The notes beneath the pieces were generated by a model. The model saw nothing but the letters and a program-made list of their open reading frames with translations, made no database searches and was not told the DNA's origin. Positions 5,263 through 58,002 of a stretch of DNA of 64,000 nt are shown here, piece by piece (positions within the stretch are counted from its first letter, which is position 1; every line of letters starts with the position of its first letter). Source of the DNA: Octopus vulgaris. Taxonomy: Eukaryota. The DNA lies in contig OX597828.1 in NCBI GenBank assembly GCA_951406725.2, positions 12,090,001-12,154,000 on the forward strand, written 5' to 3'. The translations under genes and the position numbers were made by a program.

Positions 5263-7610
5263 TTATTCACTTGTGTCGAAAGTTTTGGCTTCCTCGTTCT
5301 TTAGTGTGTCTTCGAGGAGGTTTTTATACAGTTTTTGGGACAGATATTTCTGGAAACCCCCTACAGCATTTGGGAAGAGGGCTTTGAGTTTGTGGTGTTG
5401 TGTTTGTGTGATGTGTAGTATTTTGATGTGTTTGGGTGGTGTAGTGCGTGGATGATTGCTATTTTTAAAGTGATCTTCACAAATGTTTGTGTATCCTGTG
5501 ATGTACTCCATTAGTTTGGAGTCTTTGGTGTCTATCGCTGATAGCATTGTTTTTGTGGTGTTGGTGCTTGTTTTGTTGTGTATGGAGTTTTCAGGGTTCA
5601 GGTATCTCCCTGCTTTGGTTGCGATTTCTTGTTTGGTTTTTCTTGATCTTTTTCTTTTACCCCCTGTGGCTATTTGCCATTCTGTCGAACTTTCATCGTT
5701 AGATGAAAAGTCTGACGAATCAGCAGGGGGCAAGGGTAATGCGTCTGGGTGTGTTTGTGCGGTTGTAGATATTGTTGTGGTGCGCGGGGAGGGTGTTGCT
5801 GGGGGGTTTGTTGTGGTTATTGTCTCTCCTACATCCTTGGTGCTTGTCTTCTTCGTTGTTATTCTTGGTGTTGGAATTGGTTTATTTGTTGTTGGTGGTG
5901 ATGATTCTGTTCTTGGCGCTGGTGTTGATGTTGTTTGGTTGGGTTGGCTTGTTCTTTGTTGTTTTTCCTGCATTTCCGCATACAGCTTCTTGACTAGCTG
6001 TCCATATTGTGGTGTGGGCAATAATGCTGGCTTTTGTGATTTTTCCTGTGGCTGTTGTTGTTGTTGTAATTTTGCGGTAGATTTGCACTCCTTTTTGATG
6101 TGTGCCTCACTGCCACATGTATAGCATCGTGGCCTTCTGCCCTCGACTACTACGTATAACTTGCGGCCATCCTCAAGATGTACGTGGGTGAGGATTTTAT
6201 TGATGTCGTCTTGACTTATGTGGAAGAGGAACTCTATTCTCTTTCCCAGCCAGTCCTTGTTTTTCGAAACACCGATATCTAGGATGTTTAAGTCCTCCAT
6301 TTCGGATGTTAAGGCGGATGTTATCCACAGAGTTGTAGTCACTTGGGGACACCACTGATAATGACCTTCGTCACCTTCTGGCCGAGGTAACTCGGTGTCA
6401 TCGTTAGTTCATCAGAATGAAGGGTTATCGTTGAGAATTTCTTCGCCAACTCTTCATTCTGAAAAACCACCTGTACGTGGGCGAACTTGTTCGCCCAAGT
6501 CACATAATCATTGTATCCCCAGATGGGGCGTAAGCACTTTTCTATTTTCTCTGTGCTTGCCTTTTCTGGACTTTTAGTTTTTTTATTTGTTATTTTATAG
6601 ACAATTGTCTTCTTTTCCTCATTCAGTATGTGTTGAGGTATGTGTAAGAGTATTTTTCCGTTTTCATTTGTAATAAGGTTTCTGCAATCTTTTATCTGTT
6701 GTGTAGTAAACGAAACTTTTGTTACCTTTTCTTTTATCGCCTCGGCGAAGTTTGTTGTTTTGTTATTGTTGTTACTGCCGGTGGTGTTGGTGTTGATGGC
6801 AGGGGTGTGGGTTGTAGATTTGTGGTTGCTGATTATGCAACTAGCAAGGGGTGGAAAATTGCCTGCGTAATTTAGTCCTGCATTAGCGCAAATTTCGGCA
6901 TTTCGTTTGCTTGTCGTCGTTATTTTTTCACTTGTTGGTGATAGAGTGAGCAGTGGTTGAAGGGAATTGTTGTTGTCGTCGTCGTTGTTGTTGTTGTTGT
7001 TGTTATTGTCGTTCTTGGTGACGGCGGTGGTGTTAGTGGTATTAGTAGCATTGACGGCACGGTCTTTGGTGGCGGTGATGGTGATGTTGGTATTGTTATT
7101 GGTGGCGGCGAGCTGGCAGAAACGTTAGCACGACGGGCGAAATGCTTAGCGGTATTTCGTCTGCCGTTACGTTGTGAGTTCAAATTCCGCCGAGGTCGAC
7201 TTTGCCTTTCATCCTTTCGGGGTCGATAAATTAAGTACCAGTTACGCACTGGGGTCGATGTAATCGACTTAATACCTATGTCTGTCCTTGTTTGTCCCCT
7301 CTGTGTTTAGCCCCTTGTGGGTAATAAAGAAATAGGTATTGTTATTGGTGGCGATGTCTTTAGCACGGATAGCAGTTTTAGTAGCAGATGCTGCCATGGT
7401 GTTGTTGTCGGTGTTGGTGGTGGACACACTGATGGTGTTGACGGTGCTTGGCCTTGCGACCTTTGTTTTGTATTTGTTGCTGTTGTCGATGTTGATGGTG
7501 GTGGAGGTGGTGTTGTTGCCAGGTTCAGCGTATGCTAACAGAGCATCCTGTTTTTCTGTCTCTGCGTCACGCTTGACTTGCATCTCAGCCTCGTGGTGAC
7601 CAGTGGCCAT
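5263..7610 (-). pseudogene. Tx1-like ORF1 (gag-like RNA-binding protein), interrupted by a SINE and two frameshifts
   Basis: ATG at 7610. Removing the SINE and one TSD copy keeps the frame open to about 6505. It is followed by VVFQNEELAKKF..GQKVTKVIISGVP and RPRCYTCGSEAHIKKEC (CX2CX4HX4C). Confidence 0.8.
7104..7334 (+). mobile_element. tRNA-derived SINE (family A here) with a 19-bp TSD
   Basis: Head is GGCGGCGAGCTGGCAGAA with B-box GAGTTCAAATTCC. TSD GGTATTGTTATTGGTGGCG lies at 7089-7107 and 7335-7353. Confidence 0.92.
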
Positions 7611-10442: not shown

Positions 10443-10873
10443 CAAGGCGGCGAGCAGGCAGAAACGTTAGCACGTCGGACGAATTGCGTAGCCGTATTTC
10501 GTCTGCCGTTACGTTTTGAGTTCAAATTCCGCCGAGGTCGACTTTGCCTTTCATCCTTTCGGGGTCGATTAAATATGTACCAGTTACGCACTGGGGTCGA
10601 TGTAATCGACTTAATCCGCTTGTCTGTCCTTGTTTGTCCCTCTATGTTTAGTCCCTTGTGGGCAATACAGAAATAAGAAACGATTGCACGCTGGACGAAA
10701 TGCTTAGTTTTATTTCATCTGTTTATATGTTCTGAGTTCATATTCCGCCGAGGTCCACTTTGCCTTTCATCCTTGCGGAATCGATAAATTAAGCACTAGT
10801 GGCGTACTGAGGTCGATCTAATCAACAGGCCTCCTCCCCCAAAATTTTGGGTCTTGTGTTTAGGGTAGAAAAG
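10443..10873 (+). mobile_element. family-A SINE dimer inserted into an older opposite-strand family-A copy (about 10290-10935)
   Basis: Two monomers. The TSD TATATCAAATAAYGCTAGG lies at 10424-10442 and 10874-10892. Confidence 0.85.
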
Positions 10874-13718: not shown

Positions 13719-14149
13719 CATAAGAGTGGGGTAAAAGAAAAGTTTCCATATCATATTTCATAATAAGTATTCACATTTACTTATACCGTATACAACCACA
13801 GAGTTGCCATTTCACCATTCTGCCATTACGTCGCCTTTACCCACAGTTTTGTTGTTATTGTTTATCTTTGTTTTCTTTTTTTTTTTCCTGTCCAACTTTC
13901 AAGGCCATCGACTGTCTCTCACGTCTACCATTCTTACATAATAAACACGTGTTATACGGTTGTATATATGTTACGAGAAGAAAATTTAGAACACGTGTAT
14001 TATATTGGTACCAAATTTTGGCACAAGGCCAGCACGTTCGTAGGTAAGGGGTAAGTCGATTACATAGACACCAGTGATTAACTGGTATTATTTTCATTAT
14101 TTACATTATTTACATTTAATGGATGTTTGTCCTCATCTTATTTGTTGTT

Positions 14150-14198
14150 AACCCAACGTTTCGGCTGATATACCCCCTTCCAGCCTTCTTCAGGCGTC
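14150..14198 (-). ncRNA. minimal type-I hammerhead ribozyme
   Basis: GACGC-CUGAAGA-A-GGCUG-(13-nt loop)-CAGCC-GAAA-CG-UU-GGGUU. Confidence 0.78.
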
Positions 14199-14245
14199 TT
14201 GGCGAAATTTCGAACCTGGGTTCTCATTCCTAAGGTATTTTTTGA

Positions 14246-14290
<45 letters not shown>

Positions 14291-14425
14291 CATTACAATT
14301 ATTATTATTACAATTATTATTATTCAGACACTGCCTGGAATCGAACTCGGAATCTTGGCTCTAGACTGTACATTATTTACATTATTTAGATTTGACGGAT
14401 ATTTGTCCTCATCTTTTTTGTTGTT

Positions 14426-14471
14426 GACACAACGCTTCGGCTAATATACCCTCCAGCCTTCGTCAGGTGTC
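14426..14471 (-). ncRNA. minimal type-I hammerhead ribozyme (GAAA->GAAG variant)
   Basis: GACAC-CUGACGA-A-GGCUG-(loop)-UAGCC-GAAG-CG-UU-GUGUC, with a perfect 5-bp stem I. Confidence 0.72.
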
Positions 14472-15199
14472 TTGGGGAATTTTCGAACCTGGGTTCTCTT
14501 TCCTAAGGTATTTTTCGATGTTATTATCATCATCATTATTATTATTGTTGTTATTGTTCAGGTCACTTCTTTGAATCGAACTCGAAATCTTGGGGTTAGT
14601 AACCAGCGCTCTTAACCACTACGCCATATGCCTGTGGGTATATGGTATTATTTTATCGCACTCAAAAAGATGAAAAACGAATTTGAACGACCACGGTGGA
14701 ATTTGAACTCCGAGAATAAAGACAGGCGAAATGCCCCTAAGCGTTTTATCCGTCGTGCTAACCAGTCTGCAGGACGTTGCATAAAATACTTAACGGCATT
14801 TCTTCCAAATAACTATTCACATTTCATATCGCGACGAGGTCAACTTTGCCATTAGCACTTCCAGGGTCGAAAACGTGGAGGGACTCAAGTCTTTGCTTAA
14901 TTCTGCCTTATAACCGAAAGGCCTTCTATATATACACGTGTGTGTGTTTCTACACATACATATATCTAAATACATACATATGTACATGTATATACATATG
15001 TATATATATATATAATTAAAAATATATATTTATTTATTTATAAGTATATATATATGCGTGTGTGTGTATGTGTGTGTGTGTGCGTGTATGTGTGTGTATA
15101 CACACATACATATATAGCTATGTTTATTTACAAATATATGTACATTTATATACATATGTAAACACATACATATGTATATGTACTACGTAGATTTATACG

Positions 15200-19317: not shown

Positions 19318-20652
19318 TCATATGTTGTGGTGTGCGCTATTGCTCCATTCTAGTTTTCTATTCAGGCTAGGTTTATTTTCTATTATATGTGTAGCTTCTG
19401 TAATTTGTCTAATTGTTGCATCTGTTCTATGTGTGGACAATATCTTAATCTCTATGTTATTGATTGATCCCCCGTGTTCTTGTTCGGCGTGTTGGTACAG
19501 AATCGATGAGCTTTTACCTTCCTTGAGTTGTCTCCAATATTCATTCACCCGCTCACCAATGCTTCTTGCAGTTTCCCCTACGTATGTTACTGTCTTGTTA
19601 CTGCATCGTCCCTCTATACATCTTATACTATAGACCACATTTCTGGCTTTACAGTTCGTTTGTGGGCTAAATCTACATACAGTGCAATAGTTATCCGTAC
19701 AGAGAGTTCTACTAAAAGGATAGGTTCTACCAATTATAGATCTGATAGGGTTGCCTGGCTTTTCAACAACCTTAATTCTTAGTTTAAGTTTATCTAGGGT
19801 CCTTCTAAAGCGGTACGCTAGTTCACCTCCAGGGGTGGTGTCAACGAACATGACACTCTGGTATTTATGGCTATCATACCAAGAGTTGGCCTTCCTTATT
19901 TTCTTTTTTGTCCTTTCTATAGTGTTCCATGACTTGTTCCTATAGAGTGGGCAAATCCCATTCCTATCATTACATAATATATTATCAAATTTCTTCATGG
20001 CTCCTTTGTATACTCTGATCCTTTCTTTATGGCTGTAACCTGAGAACTGCATGCGGTGAATGAAATACTGTATGTGCCTCTTTAATTCTGTAGGCTCGCA
20101 CATGCGTGACACATTTCTCATTATTCTGACGAGGTCTGCCATCAAAATATTGAATTTGGCATTGCCCGCAATGGCTGAGTTCCGGTGGATCAGGTATTTT
20201 GAGGCCATAGGTTTTGCATAGTATGAATGAAGGATTTGGGTTTTATTTTTCACAATTTCTAGCCAGAGTTCAGTGTCTAGTACTGGTAGTCTATGGTTGG
20301 GGTGTTTAGTGGGGTAGTCTATTGTGACCTTAATACTCTGGTGGATGGAGTTAGCTATTTGCTGGATGCTCTCCATAGTATTAGTTTCTATTACTATATC
20401 AACAGTACATTCTTGTGGGGGTGCCTTTACTACTATATTGATATCATCAACATAGCGAGAGTACATGTTTACGAGTATGGATTTCTGCAGTAGGCATTCT
20501 TTAAGCCTTCTGTCCCACCATACCATGAAGAGGTTGGCCACATCACCAGCGATACTAACACCGATGGCTGCCCCCTCGTCCTGGGCATATATTTTATTAT
20601 TAAATTTAAATGTGTGGCCTTTTAGGGTAACTCTTATACTAGCTCCTAGTAT
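19318..20652 (-). CDS. PLE polyprotein C-terminal part (RT motifs and GIY-YIG endonuclease), open to the stop but 5'-truncated
   Basis: Motifs [29 protein letters not shown], a CTDNYCTVC linker, and [26 protein letters not shown]. Confidence 0.9.
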
Positions 20653-22315
20653 AGTACTAGACACTGAACTCTGGCTAGAAATTGTGAAAAATAAAACCCA
20701 AATCCTTCATTCATACTATGCAAAACCTATGGCCTCAAAATACCTGATCCACCGGAACTCAGCCATTGCGGGCAATGCCAAATTCAATATTTTGATGGCA
20801 GACCTCGTCAGAATAATGAGAAATGTGTCACGCATGTGCGAGCCTACAGAATTAAAGAGACACATACAGTATTTCATTCACCGCATGCAGTTCTCAGGTT
20901 ACAGCCATAAAGAAAGGATCAGAGTATACAAAGGAGCCATGAAGAAATTTGATAATATATTATGTAATGATAGGAATGGGATTTGCCCACTCTATAGGAA
21001 CAAGTCATGGAACACTATAGAAAGGACAAAAAGAAAATAAGGAAGGCCAACTCTTGGTATGATAGCCATAAATACCAGAGTGTCATGTTCGTTGACACCA
21101 CCCCTGGAGGTGAACTAGCGTACCGCTTTAGAAGGACCCTAGATAAACTTAAACTAAGAATTAAGGTTGTTGAAAAGCCAGGCAACCCTATCAGATCTAT
21201 AATTGGTAGAACCTATCCTTTTAGTAGAACTCTCTGTACGGATAACTATTGCACTGTATGTAGATTTAGCCCACAAACGAACTGTAAAGCCAGAAATGTG
21301 GTCTATAGTATAAGATGTATAGAGGGACGATGCAGTAACAAGACAGTAACATACGTAGGGGAAACTGCAAGAAGCATTGGTGAGCGGGTGAATGAATATT
21401 GGAGACAACTCAAGGAAGGTAAAAGCTCATCGATTCTGTACCAACACGCCGAACAAGAACACGGGGGATCAATCAATAACATAGAGATTAAGATATTGTC
21501 CACACATAGAACAGATGCAACAATTAGACAAATTACAGAAGCTACACATATAATAGAAAATAAACCTAGCCTGAATAGAAAACTAGAATGGAGCAATAGC
21601 GCACACCACAACATATGACAATAGTGGATCCTGCAAACATAATAAATACACAGGTAATTAAAGAAATAGAAATGAATATCTATATATATGTATATGTGTA
21701 TATATATGTATATGTATATGTGTATATATGTGTGTATATATGTATATATATATATATATATATATGTATATGTATGTGTATGTATATATATATATATATG
21801 TATATGTATATTCTTTTTTTTTTTTTTTTTTCTCGATTAGATTTATTATTATTATTACTAATATTGTTGTTATACATACATACAAGCATATGTAATGATA
21901 ATAATGGGTGGATGTAAACACATGAATAAAATTAGAACAAAAGCAACAACAACAAAAACAAAATACAAATTACAAGAATGTATATAACCAGAAGATACAA
22001 ATATTACAGGCATCCCCCCCCCCACACACACTAAATAAACATAGACGCACATAGAGATATAAGCATGCGCAAATGAAGACATACAATAGAAATACAAAAT
22101 GGCTGACGGTTAGTAAGGAGAGACACAAGTAAGTGAGAAGAAAACAAAGGACCACTGATGCGGTCACAGGAGTGTGACGAAAGAACTTTGGCCGAAATAA
22201 GATTAAGATTAATGTAAAAAATAAATATCACTGAAGCAAAATAACACCAAATATATAGTGCGTGTGTTTTTATTGGCTAAACTGGCAATATGACCATTCC
22301 GAAATATAACAATAT
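20653..22315 (+). mobile_element. Penelope-like element, right copy (inverted duplicate of 18630-20284)
   Basis: Near-identical reverse complement of the left copy. A 1-nt A-run frameshift lies near 21030. Confidence 0.92.
22149..22193 (+). ncRNA. PLE hammerhead motif (CUGAUGC variant)
   Basis: Same sequence as 18752-18796, on the opposite strand. Confidence 0.6.
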
Positions 22316-22408: not shown

Positions 22409-23897
22409 TATGTATGTATGTACGTATGTCTATGTCTTTGTATCTGTGTTTGTCCCCCCGCTCCACTTGATAGCTGGTGATGGAGTGTTTACATCCCTGT
22501 AACTTAGCGATTCGGGAAAAGAGACTTATGGAATAAGTACCGGGGTCGATACAGTCGACAATAAACTCTTCAAGCGGTACTCCAGTACGGCTGCTGTCTA
22601 ATGACTGAAACAAGTAAAGGCTAAAAGAAAAAATATGTGCGTGCATGCGCACATGTGTATGTGTGTGTGTGTGTAATCATTTACAGGGTCAATCAAATCA
22701 CACAGCGTCAAAGAAATCCGAACGGGCGACCGTTTCTATAGTTGATATTAATTGTGTTTCATTTTAAATTTCGCTTGGGGCTTATATACGTCAAATTTCC
22801 ACTTTTATGATCTCGTCTACTTATTTCACAAGATATAATTCTTCCCCTGGCAATATTGTAAATATCCTCTCTTGAAATAGTTAGGTGTAATTTAAAGCAT
22901 ATATCAGTGTGCGTATTGAATATATACACACGTAGATATATATGTTTGTGAGTGTGTGTGTGTTTCTGCGTATGTGAGTGTGTGTGTGTGTGTGTATGTA
23001 TGTATATGTATGTATATATGGATATACATATGTGTATATGCATATGTATATATTTATGTATGTGTGTATGTATTTATTTATTTAAGGTTGGCATCATGAA
23101 CCTCCCTAGACAATACAAAATATTTTAAAGTAATTTTAAGAACCACAGAGCATTTATTGCTGGGAAACTCAATGCTTAAAATAGAGGGAAATTTATAAAA
23201 CTTGTTTTGACTAAATCTTCTTTCTGTTGTTATGTCTGGAGGACAATGGAGAGCTTTTTCTTTTTTAACAGAACCGAATGATTCGCTAATGAACTACATT
23301 TGTATTTAAATTTCTTAGTAAAAGTCGATTTGTATTTTTTTTGTGTTTGCTTTTGTTTCCAGTAAGAACAAAAACAATATCTTGTCTATGAGTTGAAATA
23401 CCATATAAACAAAATTAAATGTAGATAAATGATGGCGAGCAGGTGTAGTGAAACAAAACAACGGATGGCAAAAAATAATCCAGACGTTAGAAAATAAAAT
23501 GGAGACGTTCGAAGTGAGAAAAATCAAGGTGTGATCAAGTAATAGACATACCAATATACGTAAATATACGTTTCTGAGTTAGTCAAAGTAAAAGAGAAAA
23601 CTATAGATGATATATTTATATATTGAATAAGGGATAATGTTTGAGTTTTAGCTATACTGCTTGTACACAGTAATGCTACGTGGTCGCCTGTTTCCTTGTG
23701 AATGTGTGTATGATAGTCCGTTGTTTGTATATATAAGTTACTTGAAGAAAGAACTTGGAATGTAAACAGCATAAATTAAAAGCTTAATCGAATGAAGTTT
23801 TCAGTTTCAAGTGTTCTCGAAATGAATCAGTTTAAAGTTGTGTATAATGTAATGTATGTGATGCAATCCATTTAGAAACGTATGCTTAGTGAATTTA

Positions 23898-24572
23898 AAT
23901 ACTAATATACTTTAGATAAATATACTTGTATGTGTATGCTAGGCGTAAATGCATTACATTATTTATTTATATGAAAATTTTAGAAGCTGCAATATCATAA
24001 AAGAATTATTTAAATATTGATACAATAGTAAGTTCCTACCTATCATCTGCGTTATGCTAAGGGATGTAACTCAAATAAGAGGATTACTGAAAGCGATGGC
24101 TACTGTAAGAGAATATTTATCTGGTGTTTGCGCCAGATGTTGTTTGTTGTTGGTAGTCATGTTAATAATAACAACAGCAACGACATCGTTCTACAAATAT
24201 TACTTCTGCTAAGGTACTGGTATAATAATTATTTTCAATACTAATATACTTTATATAAATATACTTGTATGTGTATGCTAGGCATAAATGCATTACATTA
24301 TTTATTTATGTGAAAATTTTAGAAGCTGCAATATCATAAAAGAATTATTTAAATATTGATACAATAGTAAGTTCCTACCTATCATTTGCGTTATGCTAAG
24401 GGATGTAACTCAAATAAGAGGATTACTGAAAGCGATGGCTACTGTAAGAGAATATTTATCTGGTGTTTGCGCCAGATGTTGTTTGTTGTTGGTAGTCATG
24501 GTAATAATAGCAACTGCAACGACATCGTTCTACAAAAATTACTTCTGCTAAGGTGCTGGTTTAATATTTATT
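23898..24572. repeat. tandem duplication, 2 x about 339 bp
   Basis: AATACTAATATACTTTA begins at 23898 and again at 24237. The two copies differ by a few substitutions. Confidence 0.95.
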
Positions 24573-24986
24573 TATAATAGCTTTTGAATTTCACTTCATA
24601 AAAATAAGTTGAATAGCATTGTATAGCATCAATTCATACTTAGACAAACCTCCACTATCCACTCAGGTAACTAAAAATTTACCAACAACAACAACAACAT
24701 CACGACAACAGGCTGTATTTCACTTCTCACTGGTATCAGTGGTATTACGGTTCTCGTACGTATATTGCTACGTGCATTTGTGCAGGGGCATACCTGTACA
24801 CGCATGTATCACAATTTTTCTATCATCTCTGCCACACACTCTCTTTCTCTCAATCTCTCTCTCTCTCTTTCTCTCTCTCTATATATATGTATGTATATAT
24901 TTATGTATATATATATATATATACACATACATACATACCTATATATATTTCTGTCCTCTACACAATTACTAGTTTACACATTCAAC

Positions 24987-27479: not shown

Positions 27480-27807
27480 TAACATTTCATCCTCTCTAGA
27501 TCGATAAAATAAGTACCAGTTGAGTACTGGATTCAATGTAATCGGCTAAGCCATTCCCCGAAATTACAGGCCTTGTGTCAAGTTTGAAATCAATATTAAG
27601 TCTTCCTTATAAGGCAGCGAGCACGCCGGGCAAAATGCTGAGAGGCATTTCGTCCATCCTTACGTTCTGAGTTCAAATTCCGCCGAAGTCGACTTTGCCT
27701 TTCATCCTCTTGGGATCGATAAAATAAGCACCAGTTGATCAGTTGGGTCGATGTAATCGACTATTCCGCGCCCACAAAATTTCAGGCATGTGCCTTTGGT
27801 AGAAAGG

Positions 27808-27897
<90 letters not shown>

Positions 27898-28130
27898 GTT
27901 GTTGTTGTTGTTCTGGTGGCAGGCTGGCATGATAGTTAGCACGCTGGGCAAAATGCTCAGAGGTATTTCGCCCGTACTTACGTCCTGAGTTCAAATTCCG
28001 CCCAGGCCGGTTTTGCCTTTTATACTTTTGAGGTCGATAAAATAGTACAAGTTAAGTAGCGGATTCGATGCAATCGACTTACTCACTCTCCCGAAATTTC
28101 TGGCGTTGTGCCAAATTTTGAAATCAATAT
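27480..28130 (+). mobile_element. cluster of family-A SINE monomers separated by (TTA)n
   Basis: Repeated GAGTTCAAATTCCGCC...GTCGATAAAATAAGYACCAGTT blocks. Confidence 0.8.
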
Positions 28131-34787: not shown

Positions 34788-35277
34788 TAAGGCGGCGGGC
34801 TGGCAGAATCGTTATCACGCCCAGCAAAATACTTAGCGGCATTTCGCCGGTCTTTGTGTTCTGAGTTCAAATTCTGCAGAGGTCGACTTTTCCTTTCATC
34901 ATATTGGGGTCAATAAAATATATACCACTTGTCTAATGGAGTCGATGTAATCCACTTACCCACTCCCCGAAATTTCAGGCCCTGTACCTATTGTAGAAAT
35001 TTTCATCATCATCATCGCTTTTTCTTTGCTAGAAATATATGAAGATGAGAAAAAGATTTATGTTTGGTGTTTCATAACCTTTAGAACAAGAATCTCGACT
35101 CTACGTATTTCAACCGCACATCATCTTGCACAGTTGGAGAAGCAATCGCAAAGCCATGTCAATATAATAATTATTTCTAGATACTTTCTTATGTGAACAT
35201 AAACATTTGATCATTGTTGAAAATTTTATCAAGAATTCCCAGTTGGCCTAATAACGTTTACATACAGACACGCGAGC

Positions 35278-40508: not shown

Positions 40509-41696
40509 GAGGTATTACAATCCTAGAGAAGTAAAACCACGTTATAGAGTGCCTCAAGATATTATTATTCTAAAAATTTTGGTATTTCTAATTAAGAAAT
40601 CGTGAAATTTCAAATAATTATTTTAGTAATAATCTTCATTTTAAAATATTTCCAGAATTTGTATTGTAATTAATATTTTAATTAAAATTATTTAATGGTA
40701 CTACTTATATATCAAATAAATCTACGTCAATGCTAGTGGCTGTGCTTATACTAACATTGAAAAATAAATAACTCTATGTTATTTGTATATGAATATATTA
40801 AAATTTCTACGAGCATCATACGAAAGGTAGTAATACGTTTTAATAAGTCTATAACAGGATTTATACGATTTACACACTGGTGACGCTACAACCACCAAAA
40901 TTATTCGTGAGTGTACCATTTAATTGATTGTCTTTGAAATCAGTATATCATAGAATCATGCGTTTTCACACATGATGCGAATGTGCATGGGGAGAGAGAA
41001 AGAGATCATGGAATTAGATTAGGTACGGTTTAAGCCAATTTATGGTTGCTTTAAAAGAATTAAGTTACTTTAAAAGAATTAAGAGTATTAGGATTTTGGA
41101 AAAGATACTGCTGGAAATTATGTTGCTAATAATGGAAGGGAATTTTGTTTTAGTCGAGAATATTTTAAATAAAATAAATTAAGCCAAACAGCAGGCAGTA
41201 TTATTTCAAAAATTAGAAATAGAAAAAAATCTTTCCTTTAATGGATAAGTAGGTAATTGGTTATGTTTGAATGACATTATACCAATGCAAATATAGTGAA
41301 TACAACTAGTATTCAGTATATTAAAAAGGACAGTGTCTTTTGTACTTTTAATATTTAGGCAAATGAGGACTGCGAACTTGCAGAGTCGTTAGCATACCGG
41401 GTTAAATACTTAGCAGCATATCATCCGTCCTTACATCCTGGGTTCAAATGCTGCTGGGGTTGAATTTATCTTTCATCTTTTCAGGCAATAAAATAAGTAC
41501 CAGTTGTGTACTGGGATCGATGTAATCGACTTGGTCCCTCCCCGAAATGTCTGGCTTTGTACCAAAGTCTGAAACTAATATTTTGGTAAATGAAGTCATA
41601 GACATAAGATGTACATAGAGATGAACTCATATCGTATACATTTTCAAATAGCATTATGAATTATAAACGCGGTTAGAGGAAATATATGTATAAATG

Positions 41697-57628: not shown

Positions 57629-58002
57629 GGCGGCGAGCTGGCAGAAAAGTTAGCAGTATTTCGCCTGCCGTTACGTTCTAAGTTCAAATTCCGCCGATGT
57701 CGACTTTGCCTTTCATCCTTTCGTGGTCGATAAATTAAGTACCAGTTACGCACTGGGGTCGATGTAATCGACTTAATTCGTTTGTCTGTCCTTGTTTGTC
57801 CCCTCTATATTTAGCCCCTTGTGGGTAATAAAGAAACAGGTATTTCGTCTGTGTTTACGATCCGAGTTCAAATTCTGTCGAAGTCGACTTTGCTTTCATT
57901 CTTTCGGGGTCAATAAATTAAGTACAAGTTGTGTACTGGTGTCGATCTAATCGATTGACGCCCTTTCCCAAAATTTCAGGCCTTGTGTTTAGAGAAGAAA
58001 GG
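57629..58002 (+). mobile_element. family-A SINE dimer ending in (TTA)n
   Basis: Two GAGTTCAAATTC..GTCGACTTTGC monomers. Confidence 0.85.

Follow-up and report, generated by a model that had tools for sequence, protein, structure and literature searches.

The stretch of Octopus vulgaris DNA analyzed here (the window, 64,000 nt) carries on its minus strand, at 14095–14642, an insertion of two units built from a tRNA-like head, an (AAT)n spacer and a minimal hammerhead. Both units lie together between the copies of a 12-bp direct repeat (14643–14654 and 14083–14094), and the two halves of an older SINE on either side overlap by 13 bp when compared with intact copies in the window, in agreement with the original prediction of a discrete insertion that splits another SINE. 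The second unit, described there as 5′-truncated, starts at tRNA +41. All features are on the minus strand:

14643–14790, minus strand: older host SINE, 5′ half, of an unrelated family with many copies in the window
14643–14654, minus strand: target-site duplication, upstream copy, 12 bp
14634–14642, minus strand: 9 nt ahead of tRNA +1 (7 nt of element 3′ UTR and a 2-nt fold-back); short palindrome together with the start of the head; putative RNA 5′ end
14557–14633, minus strand: unit 1, tRNA-Arg-like head, with A-box at 14616–14626 and B-box at 14573–14581
14521–14556, minus strand: unit 1, (AAT)n-type spacer
14367–14520, minus strand: unit 1 body, the 5′ leader and first ~45 codons of a Penelope ORF; start codon (14498–14500) mutated
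14426–14471, minus strand: unit 1, minimal type-I hammerhead with damaged core (GAAG); predicted cut between 14431 and 14430
14371–14388, minus strand: 9-nt repeat, codons for Asn-Asn-Val read in frame; the first RT start site lies in this region
14359–14366, minus strand: 8-nt filler separating the units
14095–14358, minus strand: unit 2, 5′-truncated at tRNA +41, with B-box at 14338–14346, (AAT)n at 14248–14324 and ATG at 14225–14227; stops where the first RT start site lies and lacks the ~30-nt tail
14150–14198, minus strand: unit 2, minimal hammerhead with intact core, a stem I mismatch and a 3-nt insertion in loop II
13990–14094, minus strand: host SINE, 3′ half
14083–14094, minus strand: target-site duplication, downstream copy, 12 bp

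Other copies of the host SINE are found in the window at 7116–7271, 10458–10613, 27620–28130, 34803–34961, 41379–41581, and 57650–57987. The two inserted units are 91–95% identical to the family majority, and the layout of their hammerhead is a 5-bp stem I, an extra A, a 5-bp stem II, and a loopless palindromic stem III. The predicted motif stands as two hammerhead-shaped structures, but not in its exact form, and both ribozymes are damaged: unit 1, which no longer has its start codon, reads GAAG instead of GAAA (loss of core A15.1), and in unit 2 the loop insertion is accompanied by a G.G mismatch in stem I. Rfam and ARAGORN gave no scoring match in the window, and Rfam at E ≤ 1 on four loci returned hairpin and microsatellite noise alone. 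The (TAAATAATG)n stretch had been taken for the 3′ tail of the element, a reading we abandon: the family runs ~30 nt further, and the 9-mer encodes Asn-Asn-Val repeatedly in the frame of an ORF (see below). Elsewhere in the window there is an old degenerate PLE-like RT remnant (20146–20736, minus strand), with 26% identity to both PLE families studied here, and a 339-bp direct tandem duplication, 96% identical (23894–24573).

The proposed tRNA origin of the head is well supported, its best match among 30 tRNAs being the genome's own tRNA-Arg (50/73 identical), with an alignment score of 62 compared to at most 35.5 in 100 shuffles. A- and B-boxes are kept at the correct spacing and a scorable cloverleaf has been lost; in having a tRNA-derived head with both boxes the unit resembles a tRNA SINE. 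Head and hammerhead were expected to be linked in other genomic copies, and they are in 30 out of 30 loci drawn from the best 40 of 5800 candidates, as well as in four of the six family loci present in a systematic sample of 800 kb (80 stretches of 10 kb from the 2.8-Gb genome). Octopus SINEs derived from tRNA (OK, OR1, and OR2) were reportedly described by Ohshima and Okada in 1994, with no link to a hammerhead or to Penelope. One of these families, which we take to be about 270 bp long and related to tRNA-Arg, could be the short unit.

The six sampled loci extrapolate to ~21,000 insertions genome-wide (Poisson range roughly 8,000–46,000). The extension of ~30 nt past the 9-nt repeat includes a 24-mer with 4478 exact genomic copies, and the first 70 insertions, by position, that carry it were used to describe the architecture of the copies (the position-ordered set). 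An inverted 5′ copy is present in 51 of them; 40 of 45 inverted arms end at body 139–159 and a single one (1/45) has the ~30-nt tail, while exact 36-mers reaching past the tail end number only 31 versus the 4478 exact tail 24-mers. Direct repeats of at least 10 nt flank 35/70 insertions, compared to 3% of 600 shuffled flank pairs, and the target-site duplications of the family are 10–17 bp long. Inverted upstream copies together with a one-sided 30–40-nt tail are the reported signature of EN+ Penelope-like elements (Craig 2021, PMC8557442), and two internal RT start sites, which match the optional tail, have been shown in vitro for Anolis Poseidon (Frangieh 2024, PMC11167929). The idea that a Penelope RT rather than a LINE mobilizes the unit is upheld by the inversions, the one-sided tail, the target-site duplications, and an autonomous Penelope element with the same head. 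Two units on the same strand, in contrast to what a tandem element would require, are rare (2/70 position-ordered insertions and 0/6 sampled loci), and a route through tandems or circles is thus unsupported.

It is evident from the autonomous element what the unit is. In L180, an RT thumb and a GIY-YIG-type domain end at a stop codon and are followed by the same head, hammerhead, and tail. Among 30 loci found with this RT piece, the head directly follows in 24 (two of them being the query and a 99% duplicate), which are all those with a complete EN end, the other six breaking off earlier. At the other end of the repeat the tail runs directly into the ORF (31 exact matches), and in L412 and L414 the ORF is flanked by the repeat on either side. 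The element reads head, (AAT)n, 20 nt, ATG, hammerhead in codons ~10–25, RT/EN ORF, 29 nt, and again head. The majority ORF has 831 aa, starts ~30 nt before the hammerhead, stays open through the hammerhead and the 9-nt repeat, and has its stop codon 29 nt ahead of tRNA +1; an intron at the 9-nt repeat was discarded because the frame is open across it. The RT matches RVT_1 (E 2.7e-6) and the nearest protein homologs carry PF00078/PF26215. Pfam GIY-YIG gave no match on the EN (L199), and this assignment comes from a motif recognized by eye, alignment with the EN of relatives, and the presence of PF01541 in some homologs. The closest protein relatives (P0121–P0128) are 55–69% identical, and one of them (P0123, 55%) retains the peptide coded by the hammerhead. 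Copies are 86–96% identical to the majority (60 alignments), and no intact young copy was seen; no Zn-finger linker motif was seen in the element and viral contigs contained no relative of it. In a tree of 80 rows, which included no named Poseidon reference, the element falls apart from the Neptune-like rows. Given a single ORF with a PLE-type RT, pseudo-LTRs with hammerhead flanking that ORF (L412 and L414), and inverted 5′ copies with a one-sided tail, it is best placed among the EN+ PLEs, probably in the Penelope/Poseidon clade. The search for an autonomous PLE sharing the hammerhead and the tail has therefore a positive answer, and since this element carries the same head, the window unit is its terminal repeat (a pseudo-LTR) and not the independent SINE/retrozyme hybrid originally proposed.

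Two other candidates for the partner were rejected. The dominant young GIY-YIG family (781 aa, Zn-linker, Neptune-like) had no hammerhead, head, or tail in common with the unit, either in 30 loci or across 20 stretches of 10 kb, in which the pieces of the family described here are separate insertions, and an RT fragment beside a tail (L188) turned out to be an insertion into an old Neptune copy. At L141–L146 (e.g., L143:1580–5280), a Neptune-like PLE of very recent age and high copy number has many 781-aa frames still intact, an additional frame upstream that reaches up to 479 aa and has no convincing Pfam match, and a long tandem-repeat 3′ region; a canonical hammerhead was not found on its strand. 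Eukaryotic PLE ORFs, several of them with hammerheads, also appear in contigs of prokaryotic MAGs (L330–L346), which likely reflects host contamination.

Within the hammerhead, free core position 7 is the sole site that varies at the subfamily level (T 86, A 43, C 7), and all 13 core positions agree with the majority in 49 out of 132 spanning copies. As to covariation, the same minimal motif has different paired stems in 24 related loci (one of them, L139, from the same genome); the L139 motif (L139:2591–2640) is a distinct minimal hammerhead that belongs to another repeat family of the octopus. Minimal hammerheads of PLE type are reported to need dimers, and a palindromic stem III suits dimer cleavage (PMC4209133). 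Of 128 starts of internal segments, 18 lie 0–6 nt past the predicted cut, compared to 7.9 expected; however, a GTTAAC palindrome overlaps the site of this excess and 15 starts are found at a second palindrome, so that cleavage in vivo is only hinted at. Most templates were uncut at the hammerhead. Insertion of Poseidon in vitro is reported to proceed without hammerhead cleavage (PMC11167929). Judging from its position, a cut would remove the first AUG of the element; in other systems, self-cleavage can permit cap-independent translation (PMC13725137).

The 5′ ends of the copies seem to indicate where their templates begin. Head starts are reached by 37/70 insertions, 26 of which stop at tRNA +1..+8, compared to 4.9% expected under a uniform truncation rate (P ~ 4e-26), while 11 read 53–1099 nt into EN/RT with no second pile-up. 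A similar pattern was found by eye in copies continuing into the ORF: from eight that reach the upstream head start, five stop there (L388, L402, L404, L414, and L426) and three (L250, L425, and L427) have EN upstream of the 5′ head; three further copies start inside the head. The 11/37 and 3/8 that read through imply that longer RNAs are also used as templates. Exact 24-mer counts, which are influenced by CpG decay and subfamily variants, fall from 8224 in the body to 3033 in the head and 500 at the EN end. Among intact junctions at the head start (patterns of 19 and 22 nt), 530 fold back and 271 read through, making fold-back the commonest form. A palindrome at the head start is present in the master sequence, one of six perfect inverted repeats of at least 5 bp and among the strongest local hairpins; the +1 boundary coincides with it and may reflect fold-back on a longer RNA.

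The majority line has another peculiarity. No TTTT is found in the 2.5-kb ORF, the 3′ UTR, the head, or the body, i.e., none in a unit of ~2.7 kb, versus ~6 predicted from 16 equally T-poor relatives; shuffle tests on this majority line are moderately significant (P 0.009–0.027). Altogether, 63 related ORFs of at least 400 aa (from 101 loci) contain 702 TTTT runs versus 463–624 expected, and one ORF has none. GGGG is likewise missing from the majority ORF, an absence that is common among the relatives (16/63). A natural 569-aa copy has three TTTT, matching the chance expectation, and decayed copies regain such runs. The one related ORF without TTTT, over ~2 kb, belongs to the closest DNA relative (L254:2673–4710, 48%), which has no tRNA head and whose 3′ UTR is rich in T. 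Across the 63 related ORF loci, many on short contigs, no A/B box was found beside the ORF or hammerhead apart from one weak match far downstream, and ARAGORN with relaxed threshold gave noise on the relatives. The clade of the nearest proteins (P0121–P0296) has 2.0–2.9% Phe compared to 3.5–4.7% in a sampled neighboring clade, either by composition or by clade-wide avoidance of T runs. In RNA-seq from a second organism the element is covered equally on both strands, 69–74% of the reads run on into unlike sequence, and there is no pile-up of starts or ends at the head or the cut. These reads include the EN–head junction (28 and 14) and the +1 fold-back (533 and 414), the latter being the main loose end. 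No circle-specific joint was seen in standard RNA-seq, a kind of library ill-suited to circles.

How these copies originate could be explained in several ways. At first sight, ~270 nt with a tRNA head, a target-site duplication, and, in many copies, a 3′-terminal repeat would fit a conventional tRNA SINE, mobilized by a LINE through a simple-repeat tail, in which the match to a hammerhead is incidental. We regard this as extremely improbable: where a LINE-derived 3′ end with an A-rich or simple-repeat tail should be, the unit has the 5′ end of a Penelope coding sequence, its inversions and one-sided tail are Penelope traits, a core that varies only at position 7 between subfamilies hardly looks incidental, and L180, the 24 complete EN ends running into the head, and L412/L414 contradict it. 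The original prediction, an independent non-autonomous SINE/retrozyme that forms tandems, processes itself through paired hammerheads, possibly into circles, and borrows a Penelope RT, has in its favor the window copy itself, a direct tandem with no TTTT between units, as well as the palindromic stem III, the starts just past the cut, and the precedent of Schistosoma (PMC6765202). However, the head and body are those of the autonomous element, with no separate short-form sequence seen and hence no separate non-autonomous family, and the head-to-tail units each with a hammerhead that define a retrozyme are restricted to 2/70 and 0/6 loci, the window copy being an exception. Moreover, copies begin at the head and not at the cut, where the excess of starts is nearly equaled by that at the other palindrome, Poseidon still inserts in vitro when its hammerhead is mutated (PMC11167929), and the circle joint is missing from the RNA reads mentioned above. 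Self-processing through tandem hammerheads is refuted as the main route by this copy architecture, and we consider such an element very unlikely overall.

A different possibility is that the repeat is indeed a Penelope pseudo-LTR and the tRNA head a mere passenger, an old tRNA or SINE fragment caught in the 3′ UTR, with transcription by Pol II or read-through and short copies being 5′ truncations that pile up by fold-back on the palindrome. Among its attractions are the strength of the palindrome in the master sequence, the predominance of fold-back junctions, the internal LINE-like promoter of D. virilis Penelope (PMC2377424), a TTTT-free ORF in L254 where there is no head, and the strand symmetry of the RNA reads. 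But hairpins of similar strength at +27, +61, +203, −137, −206, −217, −303, and −319 account for at most a couple of ends each, and about ten position-ordered copies start at +1..+8 with the palindrome gone (flanks inspected by eye). A passenger would also hardly explain a head fixed in 24/24 complete EN ends with both boxes intact and correctly spaced, nor the zero TTTT against some six expected, and we think it unlikely. The 5′ ends at +1..+8 and the TTTT-free ORF are instead suggestive of transcription by Pol III, which may extend to the coding RNA.

Our preferred reading, which we hold with reasonable confidence, is that the window insertion represents two pseudo-LTR copies of the Penelope element, that the tRNA-Arg-like head likely acts as a Pol III promoter, and that the RT-endonuclease of the element would copy the transcripts back into the genome. 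Pol III would start a few nt ahead of tRNA +1, and RT internally, at two sites ~30 nt apart and 120–165 nt into the ORF, as in Anolis Poseidon in vitro. A start in a solo or upstream repeat would give SINE-like copies of ~270–300 nt, one in the downstream repeat of a long transcript would give copies bearing the ORF, and the cDNA would often fold back on the short palindrome at the RNA 5′ end. The hammerhead would remain uncut in most templates and be cut only as a dimer or with the help of proteins. The direct tandem of the window likely reflects one re-start of RT, both units having decayed afterward. Transcription of the short copies by Pol III is probable, while that of the coding RNA is plausible and proposed more tentatively. 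With similar reservation, the whole could be an autonomous coding retrotransposon transcribed by Pol III from end to end, from a captured tRNA promoter, in which a 2.5-kb strand has been purged of TTTT, an uncapped RNA is translated from an AUG that precedes an in-frame hammerhead acting as an off-switch, and solo repeats behave as SINE-like parasites.

Compared to known systems, the element shares with the described Penelope/Poseidon PLEs (Anolis PAc, PMC11167929; D. virilis, PMC2377424; PMC8557442) a single ORF with RT and, judging by motif, a C-terminal GIY-YIG-type domain, pseudo-LTRs, a hammerhead over the ORF start, two internal RT start sites with an optional 30–40-nt tail, inverted 5′ copies, and AT-rich targets. 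It differs from them, as far as they are reported, in the A/B-box head within the pseudo-LTR, the 5′ ends fixed there, and the TTTT-free coding strand, the described Penelope promoter being LINE-like (Inr/DPE; D. virilis, PMC2377424). In behavior, the short copies are closest to the Schistosoma Pol III hammerhead retroposons and to TRIMp3. Sm-alpha and Sj-alpha are also short repeats in which a type-I hammerhead comes after a Pol III-type promoter, but they are reported to be non-coding, to propagate as tandems, and to carry their promoter 3′-terminally once the unit is cleaved (PMC6765202), whereas the octopus head belongs to an autonomous element, its hammerhead is of the minimal kind, and tandems seldom occur; the available text of that review mentions no autonomous partner sharing their head. 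TRIMp3 elements (Cassandra, Helenus, and Ajax) have a small-RNA-derived Pol III promoter inside the terminal repeat, but are non-autonomous LTR elements, whose autonomous partners must use Pol II (Kojima 2024, PMC10886601), while the octopus head sits in a coding PLE. Metazoan non-LTR retrozymes are likewise short type-I hammerhead repeats related to PLE pseudo-LTRs, but they are defined by tandem arrays and circular RNAs (PMC7229834; bioRxiv 10.64898/2026.07.22.740005); neither account, in its available text, mentions tRNA heads, Pol III, or octopus, and a term search of the main text of the latter found no cephalopods among its samples. The available text of the O. vulgaris repeat annotation (PMC13282606) does not mention the head-plus-hammerhead arrangement either, and our searches of the literature turned up no account of a PLE repeat with a tRNA/Pol III head. 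What appears new here is the pile-up of copy 5′ ends at tRNA +1..+8 of a PLE head and the TTTT-free majority ORF.

The textbook picture assigns autonomous retroelements to Pol II, with R2 riding on the transcription of rDNA, and reserves Pol III for SINEs, which are short and non-coding. This separation would not survive a coding Penelope that carries a tRNA promoter in its terminal repeat and leaves short copies that cannot be told from SINEs. Such an element would also supply the link that has been missing from PLEs to Sm-alpha and similar hammerhead retroposons of Pol III, and would make both the promoter of PLEs and the purpose of their hammerhead testable on one construct of ~300 nt. If the element is indeed transcribed by Pol III from end to end, Sm-alpha-type "SINEs with hammerheads" would have a direct route from Penelope elements. 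In practical terms, roughly 20,000 SINE-looking insertions in the O. vulgaris genome are ends of the Penelope element.
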